DNA of 55,798 bases from a virus (IMGVR_UViG_3300031994_000001:1-55798), one strand, 5' to 3'; counted from the stretch's first letter, positions 28,428 to 55,798 are shown. Numbers and translations: made by a program. Notes: generated by a model from the letters alone, not told the origin.

Positions 28428-29303
28428 ATGGACATACTCAAATCGGAACAGTACATAGGCGAGAAACTTAATATAGCACCCGTTACGAAAGAACGGCTGA
28501 AAATGAGTGTGTATGATTTTGCCGCTGTGCGCGATTTCATACACGACAACAAATTGGTTTACAATAAGGAAACAAAGTGTTACGATTGCGAGGAAAGCGT
28601 TTCTGTTGACGACAGAATCGTTAGGGATGACAAAACGGGGTTTTTGATAAATTTCGGTGTGGTATTGGGCTTTTTCTGCAATGGCTGCAAATTGGTCGGG
28701 TTGAACGGCGCACCAAAGGAGGTTCTTGACAAATTCAATTGTGCAAACAACAAACTCACAAATCTCATAGGGTCTCCGACAAAGGTGGGGTATTTCTATT
28801 GCTACAACAACAAACTAACGTCATTGGAAGGCGCACCCGTTGAGGTGGAACACGATTTCAATTGCAGGGATAATCAGTTGACAACGCTCGAACACGCTCC
28901 GAAGAAAGTTGGTGGTATGTTTATTTGCAAGGGGAATAAGTTGACGACACTCGAAGGCGCACCATATCAATGTAAGACGTTCAACTGTAGCGACAACGAA
29001 CTGTATTCGCTTGAATTTGCGCCAAAGAAAGTTTGGGGTAATTTCCTCTGTTCGAATAACCATCTTACTATGCTTGAATATGCACCGCCGATGGCTGTGC
29101 TTTTTGACTGTTCAAGAAACGAACTGACATCGCTCGTTGGCGCACCGAATCGTGTTACAAAGGATTTTTATTGCAACAAGAACAATTTGAAAACGCTTGT
29201 TGGCGCACCGAGGTATGTCGGTGGCACATTCGATTGCACGGAAAACCCTCTTGTGTCGCTTGATGGGAAACCCGTTACAATAGTTGGACATTTTGCGCAT
29301 TGA
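28428..29303 (+). CDS. EKLNI-tag + leucine-rich repeat protein
   Basis: MDILKSEQYIGEKLNIAPVTKERL; ~22-aa LTTLEGAP..VGG.F.C..N repeats; TATAAATA 28405-28412. Confidence 0.85.
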   Translation: MDILKSEQYIGEKLNIAPVTKERLKMSVYDFAAVRDFIHDNKLVYNKETKCYDCEESVSVDDRIVRDDKTGFLINFGVVLGFFCNGCKLVGLNGAPKEVLDKFNCANNKLTNLIGSPTKVGYFYCYNNKLTSLEGAPVEVEHDFNCRDNQLTTLEHAPKKVGGMFICKGNKLTTLEGAPYQCKTFNCSDNELYSLEFAPKKVWGNFLCSNNHLTMLEYAPPMAVLFDCSRNELTSLVGAPNRVTKDFYCNKNNLKTLVGAPRYVGGTFDCTENPLVSLDGKPVTIVGHFAH

Positions 29304-29333
29304 CGAATATAAATATATAAATGTTTTATTCTT

Positions 29334-29855
29334 ATGGAAATACTGCGTTCCGAAGATTATATCAATGAGAAACTGAACATTCAGCCCGTTTCAAAGGAAA
29401 GAATGTCCGAGATAGTGGATGGCACATACGCCATAACGGGATGTACTGTTGAATGGGAGGATGACCAAGATTATATGAGTGAACACAAAAACGGATTGAG
29501 CGGAAGCAAGAAATATCCGATTCGTATGAAAGCGGATTCGCTCGAACAGTTGCTCATTGGTTTTGCAAAGAAAGTCGCGCCTAATCACACGTTGGACTTT
29601 GTGAATGATTGGGAGGAAAGTGATTTGAAGGATTATACTTTGATGCTGTTTTTGAAAGGGCATTTGAATAAGGAAACCTTTGAGTTCACAGACCCGACAT
29701 CCGAAGAATGGGATGAATTTTTGGACGGTAAGCGGACAATGACTTGTGTTTACTATTGCGTTGACATAACCAAGGGTGGCAAACGTGCCGATTTGAGCGA
29801 TGAAATGTCGGAACTTTATGAAAAGTATAATGAAATGAAAAGGAATAAAAAATAA
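29334..29855 (+). CDS. EKLNI-tag + acidic unknown domain
   Basis: MEILRSEDYINEKLNIQPVSKERM; TATAAATA 29308-29315. Confidence 0.8.
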   Translation: MEILRSEDYINEKLNIQPVSKERMSEIVDGTYAITGCTVEWEDDQDYMSEHKNGLSGSKKYPIRMKADSLEQLLIGFAKKVAPNHTLDFVNDWEESDLKDYTLMLFLKGHLNKETFEFTDPTSEEWDEFLDGKRTMTCVYYCVDITKGGKRADLSDEMSELYEKYNEMKRNKK

Positions 29856-29860
29856 GAAAT

Positions 29861-30280
29861 ATGGCACATATAAAGAAAATTAACGAAATGGCGGGTAATT
29901 ACACGCTAAAAGGTCTCCTTCTCGGATATGAAGAAGAAGGTAAATATGCAATGGCTGTTGACGGTTTTCAAGCGATTTATCAAACATTATATAGTGATGA
30001 CGAAGTAAATGGTGCTGTTGACTTTTGTGTATATGCTTCCGAAAAACCCAATATTGACGAAGAAAGCATTTTCGATTATCTTTGTGAATTTATATTTGAT
30101 AAGTTGGTTGATGATGCCACTGACGCGAATATTATCAACGCCATTTATAACGGCGACCATTTGAACTATTTGTCGTCAAGATGTGAAATGTTTAAGGAAT
30201 TTGACAATAGCCAATATACCCAATGGGCGAGCGAAGTTGCAGACTTGCTCGGTATAGAACTTGATTATTACGAAAATTAA
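29861..30280 (+). CDS. Hypothetical protein with MAHIKKINE leader (possible internal head protein)
   Basis: Short I-x-E-ending leader. Confidence 0.7.
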   Translation: MAHIKKINEMAGNYTLKGLLLGYEEEGKYAMAVDGFQAIYQTLYSDDEVNGAVDFCVYASEKPNIDEESIFDYLCEFIFDKLVDDATDANIINAIYNGDHLNYLSSRCEMFKEFDNSQYTQWASEVADLLGIELDYYEN

Positions 30281-30296
30281 ATGATACCTCACATAA

Positions 30297-30328
30297 CAAA
30301 AAGCCACTCTGAACAGAGGGGCTTTTTG
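30297..30328. terminator. Bidirectional terminator
   Basis: caaaaagcc-a-ctctg..cagag-g-ggctttttg between convergent genes. Confidence 0.7.
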
Positions 30329-30970
30329 TTATTTTTTAAAGTCTCCTTTAATCCAACTTGGTTTTGTTTTTGGTAAAACAAGGTTCGGGTTATTGATACA
30401 ATAAAAATCATCTTTGACTTCATTTGGTGCGCCTTCGAGTGTGGTGAGTTGATTATAACTGCAATCAAAATAACCGCCGACTTTCTGTGGTGCGCCTTCA
30501 AGTGTTGTGAGTTTGTTATTGGAACAGTCAAAATTTTCGCCGACTTCATTCGGTGCGCCTTCAAGTGTTGTGAGTTGATTATAACTGCAATAAAAACTCC
30601 TACCAACTCTCTGCGGTGCGCCTTCGAGTGTGGTAAGTTGATTATGATGGCAATAAAAATTCCCGCTAATTTCATTTGGTGCGCCTTCAAGGGTTGTCAG
30701 TTCGTTAAAACTGCATTCAAAATCCCCGCCGATTTTACCAAAGTTAATGGCAAGTACACCGTTTTTTACAACACGACCGTCAACATTAATACTTTTATCA
30801 GTATCGTATAGTCTTGTTAATGGATTCCATACGAGATTGTTGTCTTTTATGAATTGTTTCGTTTTATCATCAACTTCGGGTTCTTTACACAATTCAGCAA
30901 GTCTATCTTTTGAAACGGACTTAATGTTCAGTTTCTCGTTTATGTATTGTTCGGATTTAAGTATTTCCAT
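30329..30970 (-). CDS. EKLNI-tag + LRR protein
   Basis: Tag plus 22-aa repeats, C-terminal KPSWIKG cap. Confidence 0.88.
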   Translation of the reverse strand: MEILKSEQYINEKLNIKSVSKDRLAELCKEPEVDDKTKQFIKDNNLVWNPLTRLYDTDKSINVDGRVVKNGVLAINFGKIGGDFECSFNELTTLEGAPNEISGNFYCHHNQLTTLEGAPQRVGRSFYCSYNQLTTLEGAPNEVGENFDCSNNKLTTLEGAPQKVGGYFDCSYNQLTTLEGAPNEVKDDFYCINNPNLVLPKTKPSWIKGDFKK

Positions 30971-30974
30971 ATTA

Positions 30975-31631
30975 TTATTTTGTTATAAATTCGCCTTTTA
31001 CCCAACTTGGTTTTTCGTTTGGAAATATATTTTCATATTTGTTGCCTTTGCAAATGAAGTTTCCGCCGACTTCATACGGTGCGCCATTTAGACTCAACAA
31101 TTTATTATAACTGCAATCAAAATCACCCGCTATTTTTTGTGGAGAACCGCGTAGTGACATAAGTTCCCAATTATTTTGACAAGAAAAGTTGCCGCCAACC
31201 TCTTGCGGTGCGCCACGTAGCGATGTGAGAAAATTATTGCTGCATTGAAAATGACCGCCGACTTTTTGCGGTGAACCTGCGAGGGATTCGATTGTGTTAC
31301 CAGAACACATAAAAAAACCTCCGACTTCTTGCGGTGCGCCTTCAAGCGTTTTCAATTTGGCTTTCGTATCTACAACAAAATTCCCCTTTACATATCCAAA
31401 TTTTATTTTAAGTTTTTTGTCATTTCCGACAATATTTTCATTGACCCAAACATCACCGTCACAATCGTAACATTTTGTACGATGATTCCATTTCAAATTA
31501 TATTCATCTATGAACTCTCTTACTTTTTCATCAACATTAGGTTCTTTGAAAAAGTCAGAAAGTCTTTCTTTTGTCACGGGTTTAATGTTCAGTTTCTCGC
31601 CAATGTATTGTTCTGATTTTAGTATTTTCAT
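30975..31631 (-). CDS. EKLNI-tag + LRR protein
   Basis: Tag plus 22-aa repeats, KPSWVKG cap. Confidence 0.88.
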   Translation of the reverse strand: MKILKSEQYIGEKLNIKPVTKERLSDFFKEPNVDEKVREFIDEYNLKWNHRTKCYDCDGDVWVNENIVGNDKKLKIKFGYVKGNFVVDTKAKLKTLEGAPQEVGGFFMCSGNTIESLAGSPQKVGGHFQCSNNFLTSLRGAPQEVGGNFSCQNNWELMSLRGSPQKIAGDFDCSYNKLLSLNGAPYEVGGNFICKGNKYENIFPNEKPSWVKGEFITK

Positions 31632-31634
31632 AAT

Positions 31635-32462
31635 CTATTGTCTGATTTTTCCTTTAATCCAACTCGGTTTATTTTTCGGTAGAACAAGGTTTGGATTATT
31701 ACTGCAACAAAAATCACCACCGACTTCATTCGGTGCGCCTTCAAGGGTTGTTAATTCGTTATTATAGCAATCAAATTCGCCATCTACTTTCTGCGGTGCG
31801 CCTTTTAGGTTTGTGAGTTCGTTATCACTGCAATAAAAACCACCACCGATTTCCTGCGGTGCGCCTTCAAGGGTTGTTAATTTGTTATTACTGCAACCAA
31901 AATATCCGCCGATTTCCTTCGGTGCGCCTTCAAGGGTTGTTAATTTGTTATAAGCGCAATCAAAGTATCCACCTACTTTTAAAGGTGCGCCTTCAAGGGT
32001 TGTTAATTTGTTATTAAAACAATTAAAATCACCGCCGACTTCCTGCGGTGCGCCTTCAAGCGTTGTGAGTTTGTTATATTTGCAACTAAAATACCCACCG
32101 ACTTTCCTCGGTGCGCCGTCAAGCGTTGTCAAATTATTACGACCGCAATAAAAATTACCGCCGACTTCATTCGGTACGCCTTCAAGGGTTGTCATAATAT
32201 TTTCATTGCAATCAAAATTGCCGTTTACTTTCCCGAATCTTATTTTAAGTTTACCGTCAAGCACTATGTCTTTTGAAATGTCAACGTCTCCGTCACAGTC
32301 ATAACATTTTGTTAATGGATTCCATACGAGATTGTTGTCTTCTATGAATTGTTTCGTTTTATCATCAACTTCGGGTTCTTTACACGAATCAAGCATATCC
32401 TTTGAAACGGGTTTTATGTTCAGTTTCTCGCTTATGTATTGTTCGGATTTCAGTATTTCCAT
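31635..32462 (-). CDS. EKLNI-tag + LRR protein
   Basis: Tag plus a longer run of 22-aa repeats, KPSWIKG cap. Confidence 0.88.
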   Translation of the reverse strand: MEILKSEQYISEKLNIKPVSKDMLDSCKEPEVDDKTKQFIEDNNLVWNPLTKCYDCDGDVDISKDIVLDGKLKIRFGKVNGNFDCNENIMTTLEGVPNEVGGNFYCGRNNLTTLDGAPRKVGGYFSCKYNKLTTLEGAPQEVGGDFNCFNNKLTTLEGAPLKVGGYFDCAYNKLTTLEGAPKEIGGYFGCSNNKLTTLEGAPQEIGGGFYCSDNELTNLKGAPQKVDGEFDCYNNELTTLEGAPNEVGGDFCCSNNPNLVLPKNKPSWIKGKIRQ

Positions 32463-32463
32463 A

Positions 32464-32543
32464 TTAGTATTTTGTTATAAGTTCGTCTATCTGTTGTTTT
32501 TGCATATAAAGTTTCCGTCAACTTTCTGCGGTTCGCCACGAAG
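32464..32543 (-). pseudogene. Relic of a deleted LRR paralog
   Basis: Out-of-frame LRGEPQKVDGNFICKNNR and DELITKY* matching the end of 30975-31631. Confidence 0.6.
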
Positions 32544-33117
32544 TTGTTATGATTTTTCCTTTAATCCAACTCGGTTTTGTTTTTGGTAAAACAAGGTTCG
32601 GGTTATCACTACAATATAAATTACCACTGACTTCCTGCGGTGCGCCTTTAAGGTTTGTGAGTTCGTTATCACTGCAATTAAAACCATCTTTGACTTTCTG
32701 TGGTGCGCCTTCAAGCGTTTTCAGATTGTTATCACTGCAATCAAAACCATCACCGACTTTCCTTGGTGCGCCTTCAAGTGACGTGAGTCTATTTCCACTG
32801 CAATCAAAATAACCACCGACTTCCTGCGGTGCGCCGTCAAGGGTTGTAAGTTCGCTAAAACTGCAATTAAAATATCCTTTAACGTGTCCGAATCTTATTT
32901 TAAGTCTGCCGTCAGACACTATGTCGTTTGGAATTATAACATTCCCGTCACAATCATAACGTCTCGTTGATGGATTCCATACGAGATTGTTGTCTTCTAT
33001 GAATCGCCTTGTTTCACTGTCGGTTAATGGTTCTTTAACTGAATCAAGCCTATCTTTTGTTACTGGTGTTATATTCAGTTTTTCGCTGATGTATTGTTCG
33101 GATTTCAGTATTTCCAT
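32518..33117 (-). CDS. EKLNI-tag + LRR protein
   Basis: Start moved to MEILKSEQY; minus-strand TATAAATA at 33135-33142. Confidence 0.88.
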   Translation of the reverse strand: MEILKSEQYISEKLNITPVTKDRLDSVKEPLTDSETRRFIEDNNLVWNPSTRRYDCDGNVIIPNDIVSDGRLKIRFGHVKGYFNCSFSELTTLDGAPQEVGGYFDCSGNRLTSLEGAPRKVGDGFDCSDNNLKTLEGAPQKVKDGFNCSDNELTNLKGAPQEVSGNLYCSDNPNLVLPKTKPSWIKGKIITTSWRTAES

Positions 33118-33146
33118 AGTTCTTATATATAAGTTATTTATAAGCG

Positions 33147-35057
33147 TCAATAGTGTAGCGGCTGCGCCCTCAACTGTGTGTACGGGTTTGGTTTTGACAC
33201 AGTTACAGTGCTTTGGTAGGGTGTCGGAAATTCCTGCTTCGGTTCTGCCTCGTAGTCGCTACCGTATAGATGCTTGTAAAGTTCCTGCTCGGTTTCGGGG
33301 TTGTCTTCAAGAACAATGTCGGCAGTCCAACGGAAGTCTCTGTTGTCGAAGAATGCGCTTGCGTCAACGCAGGACATAGCGCGGTCATCGTGGTCGGTGA
33401 TTGCGGCGTATGTAGAACCGTTCCGACCGAAGAGGTTGAACTCGCCTATCGTTTCGGGTTCGTGGATAATCATACGACCCGAATTGATGTGCTTCCTTGT
33501 GTTCTGACAGTATATGAGTTTGTTGTCTTTGTTGAGTTTGAGTCCAGGCTCGGCAACCTTTCTGTCAGCAGCCCTTTTGAATTTGAGAACGGTTGACGGG
33601 TCGAAGTCGTTTTTGTCACCGAAAGCGTTGCCCATAGCGTTGTAAACCTCTCCGCCAAATGCGTTCCATTCAAGCAGAATCTTTATGTTGTCGGGATTGA
33701 ACACCATATGCGTAAGTATGTAGAGCAATTTGGCGAACTTCTGCAAGTGTATCTTGTTGCTCGCAAATATGCCGACCTGCTCCAAGCCTATGAAGTCGTA
33801 AATCGAATCGGGCGAAGTGACCTTATCCCAATCAGCCTTATCCATAATCCGCATACGGAATATGTTTATGATTGAGTTGTCGCCTCCGTTACCTTCGGCG
33901 ATGTCTATGCTGAACAAGAATTGGTCGTTTGTGGACTTTGCCGCTTCGGGGTCGAAATCCTGCTTCCACAGAATGTCGCGTGCTTCCTCTATGTCGTAGT
34001 CATCGAAGATTGCAAGTCCGTCAGACTTGACGAAATCTTCGCGGGATTCTTCGAGTATGCGCAGGGCGTTGGGTCCCAACAAGAGGTTGCCCGTACTCAA
34101 GAACGAGTTGCCGTACTGTGCGCCGAACCTTTCCCTGCCCAATTCCTCGTCAGAGCCGCCCAAGTCGCGTATCATTTTATCCATCCAAGATTTGTCCCTC
34201 TTGACCCAACATTTCTTTTCCTTATCCCAATCTGGTACTTGCCACCAATCAATTCTGAACGGTTTGAATGAGTTGATTCCCTTTGTTGCGGCATCGTAAA
34301 TCTGATAAAAGCGGTTCATACCGTTTGGCGTTGAGGTCACGATAATCTTGCTGTCGGGCAATGACGAAACGGTAGGGTAGATGTTGTCAAAGAACTCGTC
34401 AATGACATTCTTTTCAACGTGAGCGAACTCGTCAAGGTAGAGACAGTGGATTGTGAATCCGATACCGCTTCGAGGGGTCGTTGATTCGCCTATGAGACGG
34501 CATCCGTTGTCGAACACGCATTCAAGACTGCCCCATTTGTTGACCCCAGGCTTCATAAAGAACGGCACGTTCATAATGACATCCTGCACCTTTTTCAGAA
34601 CATCCCTTGCCGTTTTCTCCTTGTTTGCGCAACAGAACACCGTTTTGTCGTAGTTGAAAAGGATATACCAAGCGAGGTATATTGAGGAAGAAACGGTTTT
34701 TCCGCTCTGCCTGCTCGAAAGTATCACGGTGAATCTGTTGTCCGTTATTGTGTGTAGCAAATCCTCTTGGTAGTCGCGCAGTGTTATGGGTTCGAGTGCG
34801 CCCGTGGTTGGCGACATTGTGTATGCGTAGTGGTTGGCGAAGTAGTTGACATCGTTTTTGCATTTCACAAGTTCGTCAATCTCCTGCTGTGTGTATTCAT
34901 ATAAAAGATTGGGTTTCCTCAAATATGTGTTGCCGAAATAGTACGGGTTGTCCTTTCTCTCTATTCCGTTGTTGAGGTCGTCTGTGAACTGCTGTATCGC
35001 TTTCGTACTCCACACAGAGGTCTGCTGTGCCTGCTGTTGTGTTTGTCTTGCTGCCAT
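33147..35057 (-). CDS. terL: Terminase large subunit (T4 gp17-like)
   Basis: LRDYQ, SRQSGKT, LYLDEFAH, TSTPNG, RNase H-like SIDIAEG.GGDNS, HDDRAMS. Confidence 0.93.
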   Translation of the reverse strand: MAARQTQQQAQQTSVWSTKAIQQFTDDLNNGIERKDNPYYFGNTYLRKPNLLYEYTQQEIDELVKCKNDVNYFANHYAYTMSPTTGALEPITLRDYQEDLLHTITDNRFTVILSSRQSGKTVSSSIYLAWYILFNYDKTVFCCANKEKTARDVLKKVQDVIMNVPFFMKPGVNKWGSLECVFDNGCRLIGESTTPRSGIGFTIHCLYLDEFAHVEKNVIDEFFDNIYPTVSSLPDSKIIVTSTPNGMNRFYQIYDAATKGINSFKPFRIDWWQVPDWDKEKKCWVKRDKSWMDKMIRDLGGSDEELGRERFGAQYGNSFLSTGNLLLGPNALRILEESREDFVKSDGLAIFDDYDIEEARDILWKQDFDPEAAKSTNDQFLFSIDIAEGNGGDNSIINIFRMRIMDKADWDKVTSPDSIYDFIGLEQVGIFASNKIHLQKFAKLLYILTHMVFNPDNIKILLEWNAFGGEVYNAMGNAFGDKNDFDPSTVLKFKRAADRKVAEPGLKLNKDNKLIYCQNTRKHINSGRMIIHEPETIGEFNLFGRNGSTYAAITDHDDRAMSCVDASAFFDNRDFRWTADIVLEDNPETEQELYKHLYGSDYEAEPKQEFPTPYQSTVTVSKPNPYTQLRAQPLHY

Positions 35058-35195
35058 ATTTCACATATATTCTATGCGTCTTGGAATATCAAATCTGCGT
35101 TATTTCGTTCATATTTTTTGCGCGTTTTTGAGATTTTTTTATTATATTATTCCAAGAAACGCTATTTATATTTATAAAGGATAAAAACAACTTTT

Positions 35196-36044: not shown

Positions 36045-36045
36045 T

Positions 36046-36342: not shown

Positions 36343-36344
36343 TT

Positions 36345-36872: not shown

Positions 36873-36956
36873 TGTTGATAACTTTGTTGATAACTTTTTT
36901 GTGAAAAATGTGTTGAGTGTATAAAAAAATTGTATTTTTGCAGCGTAATTAAATAA

Positions 36957-43055: not shown

Positions 43056-43059
43056 CATT

Positions 43060-43542
43060 ATGCCGCCGAAAGACTATAAGCCGTTATTGGAAAGTAAATG
43101 GGAGGTCACATTCAACATACCGAATGCTGTTATCCAAACGGATGCTGATACGGTGAACATAACCCGTAATATTGAGAAAAAGTATATACCCATAACATTG
43201 GAGGATGCCTATGCGGTGCTTCGCGACAAGGAACTTGCCAAATTCCCAACGATGTTCTGCAAGGTCATTGTCCGCAATGAGAAATATGCAAAGCACTATG
43301 CTCACTCCAATACAAAACTCCGCATACAGCCCGTCAATAAGGAGCGTCTTGGCGGTATGGGCGATGAAATCAAGCGCATCAAGGACAAGGATATACCGAG
43401 TTCCGAATTTTTGCTTAAAAATGCGTGTCTGCTTAACCGAAACAACACCACTATGGATTTTGACAGCGAGGAAAACAGAGAAATTGTGAAGCGTGTGTTT
43501 GAGGAATGCAACAATGAAATTTACAAATTTATGATAGGATAA
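43060..43542 (+). CDS. Hypothetical protein with internal KLRIQPVNKERL motif
   Basis: Paralog of 43870-44397. Confidence 0.72.
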   Translation: MPPKDYKPLLESKWEVTFNIPNAVIQTDADTVNITRNIEKKYIPITLEDAYAVLRDKELAKFPTMFCKVIVRNEKYAKHYAHSNTKLRIQPVNKERLGGMGDEIKRIKDKDIPSSEFLLKNACLLNRNNTTMDFDSEENREIVKRVFEECNNEIYKFMIG

Positions 43543-43892
43543 TGGCTGAACGTAGTGAAATATTGGAAAAATTGAAGGCTCTTTCGTCAGAGACACCATC
43601 GGATTGGCGCAAGCAGGCTGAATGGCGTGTCAAGAACAGAGAGTGGCTTCGCGTTTCGGGCGCGATAGCACTCAAAATACTTATGAACCACGATGGGGAG
43701 ACTTCAGAGCAGATACATCAGTTCGTCAGAGAGACACTTGACTGTGACGAAAGTGCGGTTTCCCGCATTATGAGAGGTGATGCCGACCTGCATTTGAGCG
43801 CGATTATCGCCCTCATAGGTTTTGACGGATTGTGTGACGCTGTGAATGGACTTAAAAACTATATGAACAATGCTTCAAGAGATAGCAAATAG
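43542..43892 (+). CDS. XRE-type HTH protein
   Basis: WRVKNREWLR.S..IALKIL, AVSRIMRG..DLHLSAI. Confidence 0.65.
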   Translation: MAERSEILEKLKALSSETPSDWRKQAEWRVKNREWLRVSGAIALKILMNHDGETSEQIHQFVRETLDCDESAVSRIMRGDADLHLSAIIALIGFDGLCDAVNGLKNYMNNASRDSK

Positions 43893-44397
43893 GAGACTGC
43901 TTGAAAAGGTGAAGCGGGATATGTCCGAACACTTGAAAACCCTGCACTTTACAAAGGCGCAGAAGTTTGAGACGTTTGAGGTCACTTTCGGCTTGCCTAT
44001 GCCAATAAAGCGTGACGATAATGGCAATCTGTCTCCTATGACATTGGGCGAGATGCAGGATATGCTCGCCTACATATCAACGGAAACCGCTAAAACGAAT
44101 CCGATGCGCAAATGCGTTATCGCAGTCAGAAACAATGATTATGTCGCACCGAGTTTACGGAAACTTCCGATAATCAAACCGATAACAAGGGGCAGGCTTG
44201 ACGGGTTGGATATGGATTCAATTGAAAGGTCAAAAGAATCGTATGAAAGGAAATGCTCCGAGGTTTTGTTGCAGGATAGCAAATATATGGTGATTTGCGA
44301 TATAAAGGATAACACGTTTGAAACTGACGGCAACAGAATTGTAATCAAAACCTTGTACGAAACATACGGGGAAATTTTTGCACTTTATTTTTTATAA
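43870..44397 (+). CDS. Hypothetical protein, paralog of 43060-43542
   Basis: EVTF, P.TL, VRN..Y, SE.LL, NR..K motifs shared. Confidence 0.7.
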   Translation: MLQEIANRRLLEKVKRDMSEHLKTLHFTKAQKFETFEVTFGLPMPIKRDDNGNLSPMTLGEMQDMLAYISTETAKTNPMRKCVIAVRNNDYVAPSLRKLPIIKPITRGRLDGLDMDSIERSKESYERKCSEVLLQDSKYMVICDIKDNTFETDGNRIVIKTLYETYGEIFALYFL

Positions 44398-47727: not shown

Positions 47728-47772
47728 TTCATATCTAATTTATAAAGAAACGGGTGCTATTTGCATCTGTTT

Positions 47773-48297
47773 TTAGTGTCGATGCCATTTCAAAGTTTTC
47801 CATATAGGCTTCGCCTTATCCAATGGCGGCTCTTGGAAATATTTAACATCAAGAGGAAGTTTAAGGTCGGGTATTCGGTAAACCGAGTTCACTACGCTCA
47901 ATCCTTTTTCTCTCACCAAATCGCCGTTGAATGGTTTGAAATCCTGCACATATTCATAGGTGTACATACCGTTGTTGCCCGCCAAATCGGGTTGACCAAA
48001 TTTTATGTAGGATATGAACAACCCCTCTTTCGCATCGTTGTATGACGCTGATTTGAGGTCAAGGCTATGCAGGTAGTATCTGTCCTTTGCGTTCAAGTCA
48101 TCGAATGAGAGGAACACCCCGATTGATTCGCCTATGCCGAAAATCACAATGTCACCCGTTTTGAAATTAGCCTTCATTTCCTCCGCAGTTCGGTAGTGTG
48201 GAACAGAGGTCGCGTCATATAGACGCTCCTTTGAGACGGGCTGTATCTTCAGTTTCTCATTCACCCGTTTGCCTATGAAACTTTCGTATGATTTCAT
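47773..48297 (-). CDS. EKL-tag + KTGDIV module
   Basis: MKSYESFIGKRVNEKLKIQPVSKERL; FKTGDIV...PLDVKYFQEP..IWK. Confidence 0.82.
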   Translation of the reverse strand: MKSYESFIGKRVNEKLKIQPVSKERLYDATSVPHYRTAEEMKANFKTGDIVIFGIGESIGVFLSFDDLNAKDRYYLHSLDLKSASYNDAKEGLFISYIKFGQPDLAGNNGMYTYEYVQDFKPFNGDLVREKGLSVVNSVYRIPDLKLPLDVKYFQEPPLDKAKPIWKTLKWHRH

Positions 48298-48302
48298 ATT
48301 GC

Positions 48303-48893
48303 TTAATCTTTTACAAACCTCACACTCAACGCGAGATGTTCGTATTCGGGTACTGCTTTTATGTATATGAAGTCGCTTGTTTCCCTGCCGCACAGTCTGT
48401 ATGGGGCGTTGTCGTCACCTTGAACCCAAAATGCGAAGAAACGGTCTTCAATATATCTGCCGCTTTCAACATATCCGCTGAACTTTGCATTGAATCCGAA
48501 TGTGTCGTTACCGCCATCTTCCTTTGACAATATCTCATTCAGTTTGTCGCCGCACGCGGTTCTCAAAAACCTCACGTCAGCCATAGTGGGGATGTGCCAA
48601 CCGAGAGGCGCGATTCTTTTAGCAGCCTCGTATGTGTAGAACATACCCAAGCCATTGTCGTTATTGTCTCCACAAGCATAATAGTCAATTGACGCTCGCA
48701 ATATCATTTTGCTCTGCGCTTTGTATTTTTCTGTCAATGCGATGTTTGTGGCAGTCCAAAAGGCGTTCCCGATTTTGACGACTTTTCCGAGTATGCCGTC
48801 ATTGTATGTCATCGTATTGAGCAGCCTTTCCCTTGTGACGGGTTTTATGTTCAGTTTTTCCTCTATGTATTCGTTGTATGTTTTCACAAGCAA
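48303..48893 (-). CDS. EKL-tag + FISUMP (Fib_succ_major)-like domain
   Basis: KIGNAFWTATN, YTYEAA..APLGWHIPT, GFNA..SG, LSVRFVKD. Confidence 0.82.
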   Translation of the reverse strand: MLVKTYNEYIEEKLNIKPVTRERLLNTMTYNDGILGKVVKIGNAFWTATNIALTEKYKAQSKMILRASIDYYACGDNNDNGLGMFYTYEAAKRIAPLGWHIPTMADVRFLRTACGDKLNEILSKEDGGNDTFGFNAKFSGYVESGRYIEDRFFAFWVQGDDNAPYRLCGRETSDFIYIKAVPEYEHLALSVRFVKD

Positions 48894-48896
48894 TTC

Positions 48897-49073
48897 TTTC
48901 GGAATTATCCCTTTTAATCTTGTAATATTTATAAGACTTCAAGTTCAATAATCGCTTCACTGTTATCCAAGCAGTCATCAGTCAACTTGAGTGTTCCACT
49001 TGGTTTGTCTATAACTCCACGACTGTACTCGGTGTTCCTCACCGATGTTTTAAGGTCTTCCACTGACCTATGT
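48897..49073 (-). mobile_element. ~170-bp dispersed element copy 2 (carries TATAAATA)
   Basis: Reverse complement of 21931-22097 with an extra late-promoter motif at 48926-48933. Confidence 0.55.
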
Positions 49074-49224
49074 CATCTGACTTTCTTGGTTTTACTTATA
49101 CAAGTCAGTTTGTTTTTTTTAATTTAATATAAAACCACAATACCAATACTCCAAAGAACTACATACACTTAATATATTTATATTTTTCAAGATTTCTTGC
49201 AATACCAAATAGATGATTCCGTTA

Positions 49225-49797
49225 TTATTTATCAAACAAGTCTTTCACGAACCTCACGGAGCAGGCTGTGTTTGACTTTATGCGTTTGAATGTCATCTCG
49301 TGTTCGCTCAACACAAACGCCTTGTAATAACCGTTTTCGTCACGCTCGTCAGATGTGATGAAGTGCGCACGGTGGTCGTTGTTTTTCCAAGCGGAATGTA
49401 ACACCTCAACATATCCAATCAGTTTCGCGCCGAATGGTATAGTGCTTGTGCCGCCGTATTCTGTTGATATTAGGTCGGCTAACGGGAATTTGAATATACT
49501 CTGCGCCTTTATGATTCGCTTGAAATCTTCAGACGAGGGGAGACTCCAACCTTTCGGCACTATTTTCATAGCGGCTTCCGCTGTGTAATAATAGTCGTTG
49601 TCGAAAACAACATAATCCAATCCTTTTTTGATGGGTGTTCTGTCAGCAGCCAATTTGGTGTTTGCGTTGTCGCGTGTCCAAAGTATGCCGCCCACATTGA
49701 CATCCTTTCTATGCTGCTGCATATTTTTCAGTCGCTCCTTGGTGACGGGCTGTATGTCAAGTTTCTCGTTGAATTGGTCTATGTCAAGTATTTTCAT
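49225..49797 (-). CDS. EKL-tag + FISUMP-like domain
   Basis: MKILDIDQFNEKLDIQPVTKERL; VPKGWSLPS; SVRFVKD. Confidence 0.82.
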   Translation of the reverse strand: MKILDIDQFNEKLDIQPVTKERLKNMQQHRKDVNVGGILWTRDNANTKLAADRTPIKKGLDYVVFDNDYYYTAEAAMKIVPKGWSLPSSEDFKRIIKAQSIFKFPLADLISTEYGGTSTIPFGAKLIGYVEVLHSAWKNNDHRAHFITSDERDENGYYKAFVLSEHEMTFKRIKSNTACSVRFVKDLFDK

Positions 49798-50387
49798 AGG
49801 TCTTTGCATAATCTTACAGACATACCGATGTAATGTTTGTCTTTCACGTCACTTATTTTACAATACGGCTTATCTTTTTTTGTTATCATAAAACATTTCG
49901 CATTTTGCGGGTTTTTATCGTCAACACACCAAAAGGATGCACACGAATCAAATCCGTTGACAAAAGGTCTTCTTGAAAAGCCCAACAACTTCGCATCAAA
50001 GCCATATTTGTCCGTACACTTGTTGTCTTTTGAAATAAGATGCTTCCCGTATTTCATTATTTTTTCAAAATCTTCTGTGGTCGGGATTCTCCAACCTTTC
50101 GGTACTAATTTCAACGCGCCAGGAAACGTATAGTATATCGTGTTGTCAATTTGTGTTATGATATAATCACCGAATTCTAAAAATTCTTGTTTGTCGTTAT
50201 CATACACACCCTCTTTGAGCGGGTTTCCGTCCGCGCCGACAAGTGATGTCTCATTTTTTGTTCGCCAAAGCAAACCACCCAATGCTATTGTATTATAGTC
50301 GTTTTTCTTGGTGTTCAAAAGACGTTCCCTTGACACGGGTTTTATTTCAAGTTTCTCGTTGAATTGACTGTATTTTAGGATATTCAT
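49794..50387 (-). CDS. EKL-tag + FISUMP-like domain
   Basis: FNEKLEIKPVSRERL; VPKGWRIPT; MSVRLCKD; TATAAATA at 50449-50456 (-). Confidence 0.82.
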   Translation of the reverse strand: MNILKYSQFNEKLEIKPVSRERLLNTKKNDYNTIALGGLLWRTKNETSLVGADGNPLKEGVYDNDKQEFLEFGDYIITQIDNTIYYTFPGALKLVPKGWRIPTTEDFEKIMKYGKHLISKDNKCTDKYGFDAKLLGFSRRPFVNGFDSCASFWCVDDKNPQNAKCFMITKKDKPYCKISDVKDKHYIGMSVRLCKDL

Positions 50388-50458
50388 AATGTGTTATTTT
50401 TATAAATGCCAATATGTTCCGAGCATTCTCATATATAAGTTATATAAGTATTTATAGG

Positions 50459-50995
50459 TCAGTTTCGGATTAGCCTTATTGTTAGGGCAAATTCCCTTGA
50501 ACAGAAACTTTTTCTGATATAGTATTGGTTGCTTTGTCCGTAAATATATTTCACATATCCCTCACCGCATTCTTCCGAAATCCAAAATCTGAATGAGCGT
50601 CTTGGATACATAAGTTCGCTTGCGAATCCGATATACCCCGTGTAGTGTGCGTTGAACCCTATTATGTCCTTTCCGCCGTCTTTCACCGACAAGAAATCGT
50701 CACGCTTGTATAGGCACTTTTCAAGAAGTTCAGCCCATTCAACGCTGTTCGGTATGTGCCAACCTTTAGGCACGACACGCAAGGCGGCATCGTAAGTATA
50801 GTACACGTTTCCTTTGAAAATGTAATAGTCGTTACCCCGTATCAGCGTATCGCCGTTAGGACACACAATTCCATTGTAATTTTCCACACTCCATATTTGG
50901 TTGCCTATCTTGATATTCTTCACCATAACGGGCAGAGAGTGCAGGCGTTTCTTTGTTATCGGCTGTATCTTGATTCTCTTGTTTTCCATAATCAA
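50459..50995 (-). CDS. Truncated tag + FISUMP-like domain
   Basis: KRIKIQPITKKRL; KIGNQIWSVEN; VPKGWHIPN. Confidence 0.8.
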   Translation of the reverse strand: MIMENKRIKIQPITKKRLHSLPVMVKNIKIGNQIWSVENYNGIVCPNGDTLIRGNDYYIFKGNVYYTYDAALRVVPKGWHIPNSVEWAELLEKCLYKRDDFLSVKDGGKDIIGFNAHYTGYIGFASELMYPRRSFRFWISEECGEGYVKYIYGQSNQYYIRKSFCSREFALTIRLIRN

Positions 50996-52038
50996 TCGTT
51001 TTTGACCAATCTTATCGGCATAAAGATTTCCTTGTTCGATGTGCCTATTCTGATGTGTGGTGTTTCCTTGCTTATGCAGAGACAGTATGCGCTGCTTGTT
51101 GGAAGTTCACTGCAACCGAAAAGCCAAAAGTCGAACCTTATGTCCTTGCACACTATTCTGCGAAAATGATTCTTCATAATCCAACCCGTGTATTTTGCAT
51201 TGAATCCGAATCTGTCAATGCCGCCGTCTTCTTCTGAAACGAGGTTGTCTCGGTTGCCTGCCGTTATCATCAAATCCATTGCTTCCGTTTTTGTCGGAAT
51301 ATGCCAGCCTATCGGTGTCACTTTCTTTGCACCATCGTAAGTGTAATATGCGTTGCCGTCCACAATGACATAATCAACGCATTTCACGAGTTTGCTGCCG
51401 TCAGCACAAGTGGTCTCCTTGCAGTTTTCCACAGCCCAACGATACGCACCTATTTTCAGATAATCGTACCGATTCGATATACTTTTCAGTTTGTCCTTGG
51501 TAACGGGTTGGATATTCAGTTTCTCCAATGTCAGAAATTTGTTGAATCCGTGTTCCGCAGACCAAACGTTGACATACGACAGCAATATATCCGAAGGCAG
51601 CGAATGCTTTATGTCAAGCGGTGTGTATGGTTGTTGTGGTGGTTTTTTGTATATGCCTATACAATATGCCCCCTCTTCGCGGGATGCGCTTTGCATATTG
51701 TCGTCAAACTCGCTCAACGTTATGGCGGTAAACCCGTTATCATATCCTATGAGAGTGCCTTCCAATTTCGATGATTCGTGTACATATTGTGTGTATCTTA
51801 TGAGATTGAACTTTTTTTCGTAATTGTATTTTACCATATCTTCATAGGTTACGTAGAAATATGTGGCATTTTGCGATACAATTTCCCCGTGTTTCAAATC
51901 GCCCAATGTGACAAGATAACCACTTTTGTTGAGTATTGATTTAGGGGTTTTTCTGCGTGAGCCTTTCATAAGTCCCTCCTTGCTGACGGGTTGTATGTTC
52001 AGTTTCTCGTTGAATTTATGTGTGTCAAGTATTTCCAT
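50992..52038 (-). CDS. Two-module tagged protein (KTGDIV-like + FISUMP-like)
   Basis: Tag at N-terminus and internally (TLEKLNIQPVTKDKL). Confidence 0.82.
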   Translation of the reverse strand: MEILDTHKFNEKLNIQPVSKEGLMKGSRRKTPKSILNKSGYLVTLGDLKHGEIVSQNATYFYVTYEDMVKYNYEKKFNLIRYTQYVHESSKLEGTLIGYDNGFTAITLSEFDDNMQSASREEGAYCIGIYKKPPQQPYTPLDIKHSLPSDILLSYVNVWSAEHGFNKFLTLEKLNIQPVTKDKLKSISNRYDYLKIGAYRWAVENCKETTCADGSKLVKCVDYVIVDGNAYYTYDGAKKVTPIGWHIPTKTEAMDLMITAGNRDNLVSEEDGGIDRFGFNAKYTGWIMKNHFRRIVCKDIRFDFWLFGCSELPTSSAYCLCISKETPHIRIGTSNKEIFMPIRLVKND

Positions 52039-52039
52039 T

Positions 52040-53953
52040 TTATTTCATTGTTTGTAGTCTTTTCCAAATTGTTGTTGTATCTGTTGGGAGTTCTCTCTTG
52101 CCCGTAACTGTTTTGAGATAGTCGTAGTCAATTTGGTTCGGTTGGCTTTCGTCCTTCAATATGTCTGTTACCTTAAATGTATTTGAAGTCAACATATTGT
52201 TCAAAAACGAAACGAATCTGTATGTGTTATAACTTGCCATTGATGTTATCTCATATCTCAAAAATATCCCGTCATTTGTTATATCTTCGTATTTGTCAAC
52301 GTCAAATCCCAATGTTTTGTATTTTGCATAATCGGCTTTCGCTATGTAGATATACACTAACCCGAACTCCTTTTGCTTGATGTCGTTGCCTATCACGATA
52401 TATCCCGTTTTCAGCAGGCTTTTCGGGTTTGTAATGGCAGTTGTGTACGATTTCAGTTTTTCCTTTGACACGGGTTGTATTTTGAGTTTTTCCGTGACGG
52501 GTGCTGCGAACTGCTTTACGAGTGTCCAACCGCTTTCGATTTTTTTGTCATACTCAACGAAAAAATTTCGTGAATAAAGCGGACGCAGAACTTTCTTGTT
52601 TCTGTATATGCTTTCTATGTATTCATCCGCGTAAAGCGTTACGTTAGCCTTTGTTGTTTTGTTGTCGAAACGGGACAGCAAATTATACGAAAAGGTATCG
52701 TCTTTGCTGTTGTATCGTACAAGCAACCCTTCGTCAGCCTCTTTGCTTGTCTCCAAAAGTGTATTGAATTTGAATATGTCTTTATACAAGTGGAAATAGT
52801 CATATTTTGATATGTAATAATACAGCACTTGTATCGGACTTCCAACTCTGTTTCTGCTTATATCGGTTGTTGCGGTACGTGTCACGAACACAGCGTCTCC
52901 CGTTTGGAGATTGTGTTTCCACCCAATGTTTGCCCTTCCACTTTGTGACACAAGTTCCTCTTTTGATATTGGCTGTATGTTCAGTTTCTCGTTTACGCGA
53001 ATAAGTTTGTCACCTTCCCGCTTGTAAATGATGGATGCGTTGTCGGTGTTAGGGTGTTTGAAATAATCGAATGGAAGCGGCTGTTCGATATTGTTTTGCC
53101 TATACACGAATGTCGTATATCTGTGCGAGAGTTCATTTTCGAGTTTATCGTTAAGGTTAAGCAAAGAAGTGAATGTGAATGTGTTTGCTTGCTTATACCG
53201 CACAATTATGCCTTCTTTCGTCAAAGAAAAAGGTATTGTCGCCATATTCAGAAGTTTGCCGTAATCATAGTTCGCATAATCGTACATTGATATATAGATG
53301 CCCGTGCGGGTCTCCCCAAGCCTCATTTCAGAAACAACAATATCTCCCGTTTTTAATAATTTTTTCGGGGAAACAATCGTATTGCGAAGTCTCTCCTTGC
53401 TGACGGGCTGTATGTCAAGTTTCTCGTTCAACGATTTGTCTTTGTATATGCAAACTGTGTCTGTGTTCTTTATGTTGTCGCGTATGAAAAACTCGCTTTT
53501 TATCGGTTGTTCGATAGTTCCAACGGGTCTTTTTATTTCGGTGACGGTTGTTTCGTTTCCGACCAAGTTTGTCGTCATACTGCTGTCCCTATAGAATGTT
53601 GACAGAAATATACAGCGGAATGTCTTTTTATTGTGGTCATACGTTATCAACATACCGTATTTGCTTTCTTTTTTTGAGCGTAGGTGCTTTTCAAAATTAG
53701 CCCCGAATGAATACCCGTGTTTGAAATAATCCTCGAATGCGACATATCTAAAACACATCAGACTCTCGTGTTGCACTATTCCGTCTTCGTCACGCCTTAT
53801 CATACGGATAAAGAGAATGTCGCCCGTTTTCAGTCTGTCTTTCCAATTCTTTGTGTTTACCCACATTTCCCTGCCGTGGTTTGACAACTGCTGTTTTGTA
53901 ACGGGTTGTATGTTAAGTTTCTCGTTGAGTTCTTTTGTGTTCAGTATCTTCAT
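52040..53953 (-). CDS. Four-module tagged protein (4 x KTGDIV-type module)
   Basis: Tags LNEKLNIQPV, LNEKLDIQPV, VNEKLNIQPI, VTEKLKIQPV, each preceding a TG[DY]-module. Confidence 0.85.
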   Translation of the reverse strand: MKILNTKELNEKLNIQPVTKQQLSNHGREMWVNTKNWKDRLKTGDILFIRMIRRDEDGIVQHESLMCFRYVAFEDYFKHGYSFGANFEKHLRSKKESKYGMLITYDHNKKTFRCIFLSTFYRDSSMTTNLVGNETTVTEIKRPVGTIEQPIKSEFFIRDNIKNTDTVCIYKDKSLNEKLDIQPVSKERLRNTIVSPKKLLKTGDIVVSEMRLGETRTGIYISMYDYANYDYGKLLNMATIPFSLTKEGIIVRYKQANTFTFTSLLNLNDKLENELSHRYTTFVYRQNNIEQPLPFDYFKHPNTDNASIIYKREGDKLIRVNEKLNIQPISKEELVSQSGRANIGWKHNLQTGDAVFVTRTATTDISRNRVGSPIQVLYYYISKYDYFHLYKDIFKFNTLLETSKEADEGLLVRYNSKDDTFSYNLLSRFDNKTTKANVTLYADEYIESIYRNKKVLRPLYSRNFFVEYDKKIESGWTLVKQFAAPVTEKLKIQPVSKEKLKSYTTAITNPKSLLKTGYIVIGNDIKQKEFGLVYIYIAKADYAKYKTLGFDVDKYEDITNDGIFLRYEITSMASYNTYRFVSFLNNMLTSNTFKVTDILKDESQPNQIDYDYLKTVTGKRELPTDTTTIWKRLQTMK

Positions 53954-53965
53954 ATCGGCATTATG

Positions 53966-54436
53966 TTATACTCTTGACCAAACAAGTTTCGCTTTCGCCG
54001 CGTCTGGGTGTTTGAAATACTCCGCATCCAACGGAAATTTAAGATTTTCGTATCTGTAAACAAGCCATATACGGAGACCTATACTGTTATAAACCAAGTT
54101 TTCGTCAAACGATTTTAGTGAAATAAACTTGAATCCATCATTCTCATAATATTGCATAAAAGCACCGTCACAGACCACTTCTTCCCATTGTGACATACGC
54201 GGAATCAAGTCGAATACGTCATCGTATGTGTGTCTCATTATATCTTCGTATGAGACATAAACGTGAGCCTTTATGTCTTTTCCATTACCCATAAAAACAA
54301 TGTCACCCGTTTTAAAATCGAACACATAGTTCTTTGACGGTTTATGGCTACTGATTGCGCAGTCTTTTAACCGTTTCTTTGAAACGGGCTGTATGCTCAT
54401 TTTCTCATTAAGTTCTTCTGTTTTCAGTATCTTCAT
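53966..54436 (-). CDS. EK-tag + KTGDIV module
   Basis: MKILKTEELNEKMSIQPVSKKRL; FKTGDIV. Confidence 0.82.
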   Translation of the reverse strand: MKILKTEELNEKMSIQPVSKKRLKDCAISSHKPSKNYVFDFKTGDIVFMGNGKDIKAHVYVSYEDIMRHTYDDVFDLIPRMSQWEEVVCDGAFMQYYENDGFKFISLKSFDENLVYNSIGLRIWLVYRYENLKFPLDAEYFKHPDAAKAKLVWSRV

Positions 54437-54440
54437 AGTA

Positions 54441-54920
54441 TCAGTTTCTTTTCCATATCAATTCGGCTTTTTCATAAGGTGGGCGTTGAAAATACATATA
54501 ATCCAATTTAATGTCTTTACCTTTGAACCTATACACTTCATAAATTTCTTTGTGTAAATAACTGCTTGACAAATTTTCATTGAAAGCCGAAAGCATATAC
54601 CGTTTGAAACCGCCGCCGTAGTTTATGGCAAACATTCCATCTTTGTATTCATCGCTATTGATAATGTTGTCAAGATTCAAACCAAATTCTAAAATGTCAT
54701 CATAGGTTTTATTAACCATATCACTGTGCGATACATATACTGCATACTCTGACGAATCGTATGATTTGCCCATACGTACAATGTCTCCCGTTTTGAAGTT
54801 AACCGCGTATCTTTTTGAAAGTCTGTTTGGTATTTCGCCGACAGTCTTTTCCAAACGGTCTTTTGTGACGGGTTTAATGTTAAGTTTCTCGTTTAGTTCT
54901 TCTGTTTTCAGTATTTTCAT
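54441..54920 (-). CDS. EKL-tag + KTGDIV module
   Basis: MKILKTEELNEKLNIKPVTKDRL; FKTGDIV. Confidence 0.82.
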   Translation of the reverse strand: MKILKTEELNEKLNIKPVTKDRLEKTVGEIPNRLSKRYAVNFKTGDIVRMGKSYDSSEYAVYVSHSDMVNKTYDDILEFGLNLDNIINSDEYKDGMFAINYGGGFKRYMLSAFNENLSSSYLHKEIYEVYRFKGKDIKLDYMYFQRPPYEKAELIWKRN

Positions 54921-55798
54921 ATTTGCTTATTTTTGTCTCTTACAAACCTTACGGACATTCCGTATTTTGACGGTATCTTTTCCGAAAAAGCAACACCGCC
55001 GTCCTTTAGTTTGCTGCCCGCTATTTTCAGACCTTTTATGATGTCGGGTTCGTCAATACCGAATTTAGGATAGTCATAGGCAAGGGTGGCATAAAGGTCT
55101 TTTCCTATCACACGAGCCTTTGTGTGCGTTCCGACCAATTTCACATTGAATCCGTATTTGTCCGTGCCGCCGTAATCTTTTGAGATTATGTTAAGCACAT
55201 TATTCTCGGTGTCGTTTGCGAGACTGTTGTAATCTTCCTTTGTCGGCAAACGCCAACCGCTCGGAACAATCCGCATAGCAGCGTCATAAGTGTAGTAGAT
55301 TTCGCCGTTTTCTTCAAAGTAGTCAACACCCCTTTTAAGCGGTGTTCCATCGTTTGCGGTCAAAATTGAAGCGTTCTCGGCTGTCCAAATCTTATCGCCT
55401 ATATACACAAACTTGTTTTTTGTCGCTTGAAGTCTCTCTTTCGATACGGGTTGTATGTTTAATTTCTCCATAACCTTTTTGGGTTGATGGCTGTAGTTGT
55501 AAATGAGTGACCAACCGTGGGACAATGCAAAAACAAGGTTTTGGTTGTCTTTAAAATATTTGTCGGTCAAGGGGTATTTGAAGTTCTCGTTTCTGTATAT
55601 CCTGCACACGTATTCCAAATCCCACATAACGGTATTGCATATAGGTTTGGTGTCACCGAATCGGTTTACCCTGCTGAATCCGTATTTCTTTTCGTCCCAA
55701 CGCCACCTTATAAACAAACCTTCTTTTATTGAAACATTCGATGTATCAATGGTTTTGAAGTTGAAAATTGATTTGTATTTGTGATAGTCCTCTTCCGA
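54917..55798 (-). CDS. Multi-module tagged protein (KTGDIV-type + FISUMP-like), 5' partial
   Basis: Frame open to window end; internal VMEKLNIQPVSKERL. Confidence 0.8.
   Translation of the reverse strand, partial: SEEDYHKYKSIFNFKTIDTSNVSIKEGLFIRWRWDEKKYGFSRVNRFGDTKPICNTVMWDLEYVCRIYRNENFKYPLTDKYFKDNQNLVFALSHGWSLIYNYSHQPKKVMEKLNIQPVSKERLQATKNKFVYIGDKIWTAENASILTANDGTPLKRGVDYFEENGEIYYTYDAAMRIVPSGWRLPTKEDYNSLANDTENNVLNIISKDYGGTDKYGFNVKLVGTHTKARVIGKDLYATLAYDYPKFGIDEPDIIKGLKIAGSKLKDGGVAFSEKIPSKYGMSVRFVRDKNKQI

Follow-up and report, generated by a model that had tools for sequence, protein, structure and literature searches.

A detailed picture of how large phages select the proteins destined for their heads and their hosts exists only for T4 and, partially, for the phiKZ-like phages. 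In T4, the internal proteins IPI, IPII and IPIII as well as Alt carry a capsid-targeting sequence (CTS) that is removed by the gp21 prohead protease (PMC9026906, PMC3012670); within this peptide, targeting depends on residues 4 and 7 and processing on residues 8 and 10 (PMC9026906). Diverse internal proteins bearing a common CTS occur in the T-even phages (PMC3012670, PMC9026906). In phiKZ, 201phi2-1 and SPN3US, a diverged gp21 homologue processes many head-internal proteins, cutting after Glu, and these proteins are ejected into the host; multiple cut sites are reported for single propeptides (PMC9026906, PMC5694885, PMC10052503). Here we analyzed the first 55.8 kb (55,798 nucleotides, the window) of a 413,021-bp virus record, IMGVR_UViG_3300031994_000001 (100% complete according to CheckV), in which a short peptide tag recurs on proteins with unrelated domains. 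The tag consists of a leader ending in Glu, directly followed by a block of 12 residues (the 12-mer), K-L-x-I-x-P-[VI]-[ST]-K-x-R-L. As the best explanation we propose, with a probability of roughly 0.6, that the leader is a T4-type targeting signal that would be removed by a gp21-type protease, and that the 12-mer would be kept as a handle on the cargo.

The initial annotation of the window had counted about 20 copies of the tag in about 16 genes, a figure that our census reproduced. A six-frame regular-expression search with the motif [ILVF]-x-E-K-L-x-I-x-P-[VI]-[ST]-K-x-R-L returned 18 strict copies, all lying in 28.4-33.1 kb and 48.2-55.5 kb, and a hidden Markov model (HMM) census, which added degenerate copies at 30934, 50977 and 54403, arrived at 20 tags in 16 genes. 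A back-translated 30-nt pattern matched 19 times in the window as compared to 0.00 expected matches (100 shuffles), and 63 times in the whole 413,021-bp genome (reversed control, 0). The copies had been described as usually standing behind M[KE]IL; of the 20 window copies, 14 are N-terminal with a leader, one (50989) is leaderless and five are internal. The proposed profile search over the entire genome and relatives revealed 76 tags in the genome (at least 15 bits), the tagged modules summing to 13,270 residues or 9.6% of the genome (median module, 162 residues), and 166 clusters with E ≤1e-3 among 1.84 billion protein cluster representatives. All clusters examined were metagenomic, from contigs of up to 413 kb. 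Glu occupied P1, the residue preceding the predicted cut, in 73 of the 76 genome tags, and the 12-mer followed the cut site in 39 of 43 leader-bearing open reading frames of this genome. In the 148 database proteins that we analyzed, 142 tags began at residue 1, and 29 proteins contained two to four tags. A tblastn search of 50,697 deposited phage records with the 26-residue tag gave no match at E up to 10, and the tag profile found nothing convincing (best E 0.17) in PTm1, in PAU or in LR756500, the record whose major capsid protein is nearest (MCP; 44% identity). Near-identical DNA is present in gut metagenomes of sheep, cattle, goat and pig, and a metatranscriptome library from sheep gut contains exact contigs of the region, which documents presence in an RNA library and is not proof of transcription. 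In this clade, made up of uncultured phages from ruminant and pig guts, the tag appears to be a strict, readable sequence label.

The first part of the tag is well supported by sequence as a T4-type capsid-targeting leader with a putative cut site. As in T4, it is a leader of about ten residues at the N-terminus of unrelated, fast-evolving small proteins, and its last residues are hydrophobic-x-Glu, position -4 being aromatic and position -3 Ile or Val. The T4 leader is slightly shorter: among the 142 N-terminal database tags, we counted 3 leaders of 10 residues, 36 of 11 and 85 of 12 (11 or 12 in 121 of 142), and nearly all of the 58 N-terminal tags in the present genome likewise have 11 or 12. 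Within the 12-residue class (n = 85), position -4 is [YF] in 85, position -3 is [IV] in 82 and position -1 is Glu in 85 cases; the class ends in [YF]-[IV]-[NSG]-E, the position-for-position counterpart of F-I-A-E in T4. The main form is M-[KRE]-I-L-x(4-5)-[YF]-[IV]-x-E, accompanied by a rarer form, M-K-T-Y-x-E-Y-I-x-E. Its 10-residue representatives MKTYNEYIGE, MKTYEEYIEE and, when the window gene 48303-48887 is read from GTG, MKTYNEYIEE share 7 of 10 residues with MKTYQEFIAE↓A (the arrow marks a cut site), with which IPII and IPIII begin in the T4 record, ten residues being too few for a homology statistic. A similar convention exists in a cultured member of the clade, as PAU gp152 (scaffold), gp153 and gp154 (annotated as internal capsid protein), which adjoin the protease, scaffold and MCP genes, share the leader MKT[LI]xxLYE↓A. 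PAU differs in having only a few leader proteins and, like PTm1 and LR756500, no 12-mer detected by the profile. The two parts of the tag are also found separately. Three proteins of the present genome carry the leader without the 12-mer (MKILSLDQFIAE↓GAGAG…, MKILSFDEFKSINE↓S… and MKILLTEQYSE↓L…), and in several others, from this genome and from relatives, the 12-mer stands at the very start (M-LNIQPLTK…, M-LSIKPITKTRL…). These forms show that E↓K is a real module boundary.

A protease that could act on this boundary is encoded outside the window. A Peptidase_S77 (gp21) domain (PF03420, 7e-14) lies within a 651-residue frame (genome 290919-292871, minus strand), in which the protease is fused to a scaffold-like tail; a comparable protease-scaffold fusion is annotated in PTm1. 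The C-terminal half of the frame comprises 12 repeats with an exact 14-residue period, of the form H-[SN]-D-Y-L-A-E-[QK]-L-x-x-x-x-x. Every repeat contains Y-[LI]-A-E-[QK]-L, the same P4-P2' pattern as Y-I-N-E-K-L of the tag. The likeness stops at Y-[IL]-x-E-K-L, and the tag HMM had no match in the protease-scaffold frame. The gp23-type MCP (PF07068, 6e-29), whose gene is located just outside the window, has a predicted maturation site M-L-N-E↓S that aligned with F-L-T-E↓A of T4 gp23; the same alignment position reads L-M-E↓N in PAU, I-N-E↓S in PTm1 and L-Y-E↓N in LR756500. For PAU, N-terminal sequencing has shown that a 585-residue MCP precursor is converted to a 520-residue mature form (PMC5646251), which places the cut at the aligned Glu or at most one residue away; about 65 residues are thus removed at the position aligned with L-N-E of the phage analyzed here. 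The initial annotation had regarded the leader as a T4-type signal removed after [ILV]-x-E, a proposal that gains support from the gp21-type protease, the MCP and scaffold sites, the length and ending of the leader, the 7/10 variants and the E↓K boundary. Cleavage and packaging, having been shown in T4, are here predicted from sequence.

What sets the tag apart from the CTS is its second part, a much more conserved 12-residue block after the cut, to which T4 has nothing comparable. Three of its residues were nearly invariant in the genome tags (I 76/76, P 75/76, L 71/76), far above the leader positions, which were conserved at only 30-40%. Across 150 cluster representatives that are <50% identical overall, seven positions were conserved at ≥90%. 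Pairwise comparison of the 13 codons that run from Glu to the final Leu gave identities of 0.81 for codon positions 1+2 and 0.48 for position 3, where 0.35 would be expected for these peptides under genome-wide codon usage. Moreover, the block uses six codons for Leu, six for Arg and both codon families for Ser. These values point to selection on the peptide and not to a DNA signal; the initial annotation had considered that conservation might be stronger in the DNA than in the peptide, and the reverse was found. Two codons are skewed in a way that peptide selection does not account for, namely AAA for the Lys following Glu (97% of copies vs 55% genome-wide) and CCC for Pro (77% vs 22%).

AlphaFold models were calculated for proteins carrying the KTGDIV module, one of the cargo families described below. 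In a single-module protein (54441-54920), the domain was predicted with a local confidence (pLDDT) >90 and the tag with ~50 and without secondary structure. In a KTGDIV-KTGDIV protein, residues 1-26 and the internal tag (residues 159-180) had pLDDT <50, and the domains reached 80-93. According to this model, the two domains are confidently folded but mutually unfixed (predicted template modelling score 0.45), and N-terminal and internal tags alike are predicted to be disordered and flexible. We conclude that the tag is a peptide signal, neither a DNA signal nor part of a fold. The alternating hydrophobic residues, central Pro and flanking basic residues of the 12-mer would fit an extended, groove-binding peptide. 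Such a peptide may dock inside the head, serve as a handle for exit through the tail or, before cleavage, dock to the protease-scaffold. The earlier idea that these 12 residues survive cleavage as a second address fits their retention at every module, internal ones included, and their modelled disorder; the role itself is one that we infer. Two leaderless paralogues of about 175 residues (43003-43542 and 43870-44397, plus strand) contain weak 12-mer-like stretches in mid-protein, KLRIQPVNKERL with 11 bits and IKPITRGRLD with 9 bits, which may be due to chance or represent distant relatives of the block.

The initial annotation overlooked the internal copies of the tag, which make some of the genes candidate polyproteins. 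In the window, the Lys codons of internal tags are located at 51522, 52489, 52987, 53422 and 55465. Tags at these joints have lost M[KE]IL and retain [VIL]-x-E plus the 12-mer. The same pattern emerged from the 1.84-billion-protein search, where 42 internal joints had Glu at P1 in 42 and V/I/L/M at P3 in 38 cases and did not retain the MxIL part, and from 13 joints in the present genome (Glu at P1, MxIL part not kept). The multi-module frames are not assembly errors, since a bovine strain that is 3% diverged is colinear across 50714-54403 without gaps. Comparing strains further revealed that a given module may occur as part of a fusion, as a separate protein or in combination with other partners. 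Module 2 of the 637-residue protein, internal here (…KDKSLNE↓KLDIQPVSKERLRN…), opens a separate 471-residue protein in another strain (P0008), where it follows a full leader, MEVFGTDKFNE↓KLDIQPVSKERLRN…, and is 94% identical. Likewise, the FISUMP module of 50992-52038 is found elsewhere as a stand-alone protein behind MKTYNEYIGE (pair w348/P0148). In these strain pairs, the sequence upstream of Glu is all changed and the sequence downstream unchanged, and the module make-up of window 50992-53953 differs from that of P0003, P0007, P0008 and P0148 exactly at tag boundaries. This suggests that the tags also act as recombination joints. Candidate tag-to-tag joints in DNA contigs had sides of only ~30 nt; we took them as cross-matches of other tagged genes and not as rearrangements. 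As in viral polyproteins, independently folding modules are connected by short, exposed and disordered linkers, each containing the motif of the protease, with the difference that cleavage is here a prediction. The multi-module proteins are probably polyproteins that the prohead protease would cut into modules of ~120-280 residues.

The cargo behind the tags is diverse. At least four unrelated domains had been claimed, and leucine-rich repeat (LRR), acidic orphan, FISUMP and KTGDIV cargo could all be confirmed; genome-wide, the cargo falls into 26 BLAST clusters, including 21 KTGDIV modules, 18 LRR and 9 FISUMP modules together with many small families and singletons. Among the 150 database representatives, we identified 47 KTGDIV, 16 Pfam FISUMP, 13 DUF285 and 2 LRR_4 cases, the remainder being mostly unnamed. 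Compared to known structures, the LRR cargo matched Listeria InlJ (3bz5, 1.3e-21) and the LRR domains of IpaH7.8 and SspH1 (3e-4 to 2e-3), and Pfam LRR models gave no match to the window LRR proteins at E 0.01. The FISUMP cargo matched Pfam Fib_succ_major with 3e-12 to 4e-9, three window proteins scoring 47.6, 37.5 and 44.9 bits, above the gathering cut-off of 33.9. KTGDIV modules have a mean identity of 27%, and apart from one Gly, only E, K, I and P of the tag are invariant in their alignment. The family had no Pfam or PHROG match, its model had a best E of 0.8 in a Foldseek search of the PDB, and the top VIA-align matches among 48,161 chains were NlpC/P60-like 3kw0 and 2if6 (best Z 4.3), followed by SH3/Tudor-like barrels with Z ~3; the ESM Atlas returned only viral hypothetical clusters (<0.8). 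For KTGDIV and FISUMP, a homologue search of 5.8 billion proteins found only two near-identical phage proteins each, and thus no donor for the FISUMP cargo, which the initial annotation had regarded as probably borrowed from host surface protein families. A tagged DUF285 (BspA-like repeat) protein is encoded at genome 93587-94222 (minus strand, 7e-42). The DUF285 family has a K-T-R-L variant of the block that is common in a related 192-kb contig, which indicates that tag variants track the cargo family and not the phage lineage. Pfam and PHROGs searches of 20 further tagged or leader-only proteins yielded only DUF285 and a sub-threshold APOBEC-like match, the latter in a tagged 151-residue protein (genome 333970-334420, minus strand; PF05240, 6.9e-5, 23.2 bits, below the cut-off of 23.6). 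One tagged database relative has a MafB19-like deaminase match (2e-5), and a possible enzymatic cargo may thereby exist among otherwise binding-type modules. An untagged, very acidic open reading frame of 139 residues (29861-30280, plus strand), without Pfam or PHROG match, lies just after the tagged acidic gene 29334-29855.

In the mechanism that we favour, the leader would direct its protein to the scaffold core while the prohead assembles; there, the gp21-type protease would cut after Glu, and the leader would be lost. The 12-mer would stay behind as the new N-terminus, each module needing a handle of its own, which would most likely serve to dock it within the head or to let it leave together with the DNA. 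Multi-module proteins would need just one full leader, their joints keeping cut site and handle only, and the same protease would process them inside the head into single modules, each of them handle-first. The cargo, mainly binding-type or orphan domains (LRR, DUF285, FISUMP, KTGDIV), would presumably be delivered into the host along with the DNA, like the internal proteins of T4. A more far-reaching version, which we put forward only tentatively, is a two-stage peptide code undescribed in any phage: the leader would load the protein, the protease would cut at every [VIL]-x-E↓K joint, and the shared N-terminus would represent a universal second address for inner capsid or DNA docking or for threading through the tail. 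The propeptide-bearing inner-body proteins of phiKZ, 201phi2-1 and SPN3US are comparable in being processed after Glu by a gp21-related protease; they belong to another lineage, with long propeptides, an S/A/G-x-E motif, no shared short tag and no universal post-cleavage block described. By analogy, the 12-mer may also be compared to the cargo-loading peptides of encapsulins (PMC8346489), which are short, disordered and conserved peptides on unrelated cargo of an HK97-fold shell. In contrast to the 12-mer, those peptides are usually C-terminal, differ in sequence, bind the shell directly and have no paired protease site.

Several points weigh against the cleaved-leader mechanism. The most conserved part of the tag lies after the cut, unlike in T4, and for this reason the true targeting element might be the 12-mer, which is not needed for cleavage as such, given that the MCP and scaffold sites lack it. 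Homology to the T4 CTS cannot be proved from the likeness of a 10-residue leader, and the position-3 excess together with the AAA/CCC skew may reflect a DNA- or RNA-level effect or recent common descent. The named cargo (internalin-like LRR, DUF285, FISUMP) is typical of cell-surface binding, for which display on the exterior would be at least as natural. PAU is reported to be a 'hairy' phage with head fibres or hairs. PTm1 has head-fibre-like appendages (PMC8643167).

Among the alternatives, the one that survives best, doubtful as we consider it, takes the 12-mer as the loading signal. It would bind the protease-scaffold or, in an encapsulin-like manner, the inner capsid wall and have no role after maturation, the leader being a removable cap. 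This would agree with the conservation of the block far above that of the leader, with its retention in all internal modules despite the loss of the leader and with the proteins that begin directly with it. However, the leader is conserved in length, resembles the T4 CTS and occurs alone on three proteins, which argues that it works by itself, and a functionless cap would not hold 11-12 residues in 121 of 142 cases. We judge it unlikely that the ~15-residue motif is instead an uncleaved anchor that docks adhesin modules outside the capsid or on head or tail fibres, multi-module proteins providing multivalent decoration. The nameable binding domains, the appendages of PTm1 among the terminase and MCP relatives (PMC8643167) and the modelled tag, an exposed disordered extension suited to docking, would be compatible with such an anchor, but it leaves unaccounted for the fixed 10-12-residue leader with its CTS-like last four residues and 7/10 variants, the split of leader and 12-mer exactly at E↓K and the protease-type [VIL]-x-E at internal joints; moreover, LRR domains are also used by the injected effectors IpaH and SspH1. 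Very improbable is a recombination cassette, kept mainly as a DNA homology patch for module swapping or fusion, because in spite of the strain differences at exact tag boundaries (P0008, P0148 and P0003 vs the window genes), the somewhat raised position-3 identity and the two skewed codons, identity at codon positions 1+2 far exceeds that at position 3, Leu, Arg and Ser are encoded with varied codons, and seven positions are conserved at ≥90% in otherwise divergent representatives, so that shuffling is better read as a by-product.

The genomic setting of the tagged genes is that of a T4-related phage. Like T4, this phage combines a gp21-type protease, a gp23-type MCP and a T4-type terminase with TATAAATA, which we take to be the T4 late-promoter motif. 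The closest deposited relatives, as judged by terminase and MCP, are uncultured phages of 460-640 kb, Prevotella Lak phages, Tenacibaculum PTm1 and Sphingomonas PAU (28-44% identity). The large terminase (TerL; Pfam Terminase_6N, 2.6e-16) and the MCP gene are both flanked by tagged clusters, the latter on both sides, and the window contains 36 tRNA genes. TATAAATA occurs 18 times in the window vs 2.4 expected, and the statement that several tagged clusters sit behind it was borne out by its positions: it lies 22-29 nt upstream of ATG in 13 of the 58 N-terminally tagged genes, including those starting at 28428, 29334 and 33117, and 69 nt upstream in a 14th. The gene starts at 48887 and 50387 are also preceded by the motif, which usually lies before the opening gene of a tightly packed cluster; TerL has one upstream as well. 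This placement would fit late expression next to head genes. Sigma-70-like promoters and terminators showed no enrichment in 47-55.8 kb. Elsewhere in the window, at 11029-11150, TATAAATA opens each unit of a tandem array (28-nt unit, 4.4 copies; consensus TATAAATAAAAACGGCAAAATCGCCCGT) and is followed there by a short GC-rich palindromic stretch; an additional TATAAATA is located on the other strand at 10995.

Table 1. Tagged genes and the large terminase gene of the window (arrows, predicted cut sites).
Feature	Position	Strand	Details
LRR cargo	28428..29303	+	N-terminal tag MDILKSEQYIGE↓KLNIAPVTKERL, nt 28428-28499; TATAAATA at 28405
Acidic 173-residue orphan cargo	29334..29855	+	N-terminal tag, nt 29334-29405; TATAAATA at 29308
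LRR cargo	30329..30970	-	Tag with Pro replaced by Ser at block position 5 (KLNIKSVSK)
LRR cargo	30975..31631	-	N-terminal tag
LRR cargo	31635..32462	-	N-terminal tag; InlJ LRR match 1.3e-21
LRR cargo	32518..33117	-	N-terminal tag; first gene of the cluster; TATAAATA at 33135-33142
T4-type large terminase	33147..35057	-	Head-morphogenesis context; TATAAATA at 35163-35176
KTGDIV cargo	47773..48297	-	14-residue leader MKSYESFIGKRVNE↓KLKIQPVSKERL
FISUMP cargo	48303..48887	-	Probable GTG start; leader (M)KTYNEYIEE↓KLNIKPVTRERL; TATAAATA at 48926-48933
FISUMP cargo	49225..49797	-	N-terminal tag; Pfam Fib_succ_major 3e-12
FISUMP cargo	49794..50387	-	N-terminal tag; TATAAATA at 50449-50456
FISUMP cargo	50459..50989	-	Degenerate 12-mer only (MENKRIKIQPITKKRL); without leader and without Glu cut site
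Two-module protein	50992..52038	-	N-terminal tag and KTGDIV-like module; internal FLTLE↓KLNIQPVTKDKL (Lys 51522) and FISUMP
Four-module KTGDIV protein, 637 residues	52040..53953	-	N-terminal tag (Lys 53920); internal SLNE↓ (53422), RVNE↓ (52987) and PVTE↓ (52489)
KTGDIV cargo	53966..54436	-	N-terminal tag, KMSIQPVSKKRL variant
KTGDIV cargo	54441..54920	-	N-terminal tag; AlphaFold domain pLDDT >90, tag ~50
Two-module gene, 3' part	54917..55798	-	Exits the window; KTGDIV, internal KKVME↓KLNIQPVSKERL (Lys 55465), FISUMP

As compared to the initial annotation, our analysis adds the internal copies and their reading as polyproteins, the scaffold and MCP sites, the leader-only and 12-mer-only forms, the pairs of strains with fused and separate modules, the 7/10 identity with the T4 CTS, the codon analysis and the models of tag disorder. 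We know of no description of a polyprotein arrangement for the accessory cargo of a tailed phage, and neither the 12-mer nor polyprotein cargo was described in the literature that we searched. If the proposed mechanism is correct, the T4 model would gain two new elements, namely the conserved 12-mer that follows the cut and the organization of cargo as polyproteins. The scale also differs, with 76 modules as compared to a handful of T4 proteins, and a tenth of the 413-kb genome would constitute a sequence-addressable arsenal of injected proteins. The tag might serve for loading foreign proteins into capsids, and the pool of unexplored small binding proteins behind it (KTGDIV, LRR, DUF285, FISUMP) would provide candidate inhibitors of host defences. 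For uncultured phages of this kind, the injected proteome could then be listed directly from sequence, beginning with the 76 modules of this genome and the 166 public protein clusters.

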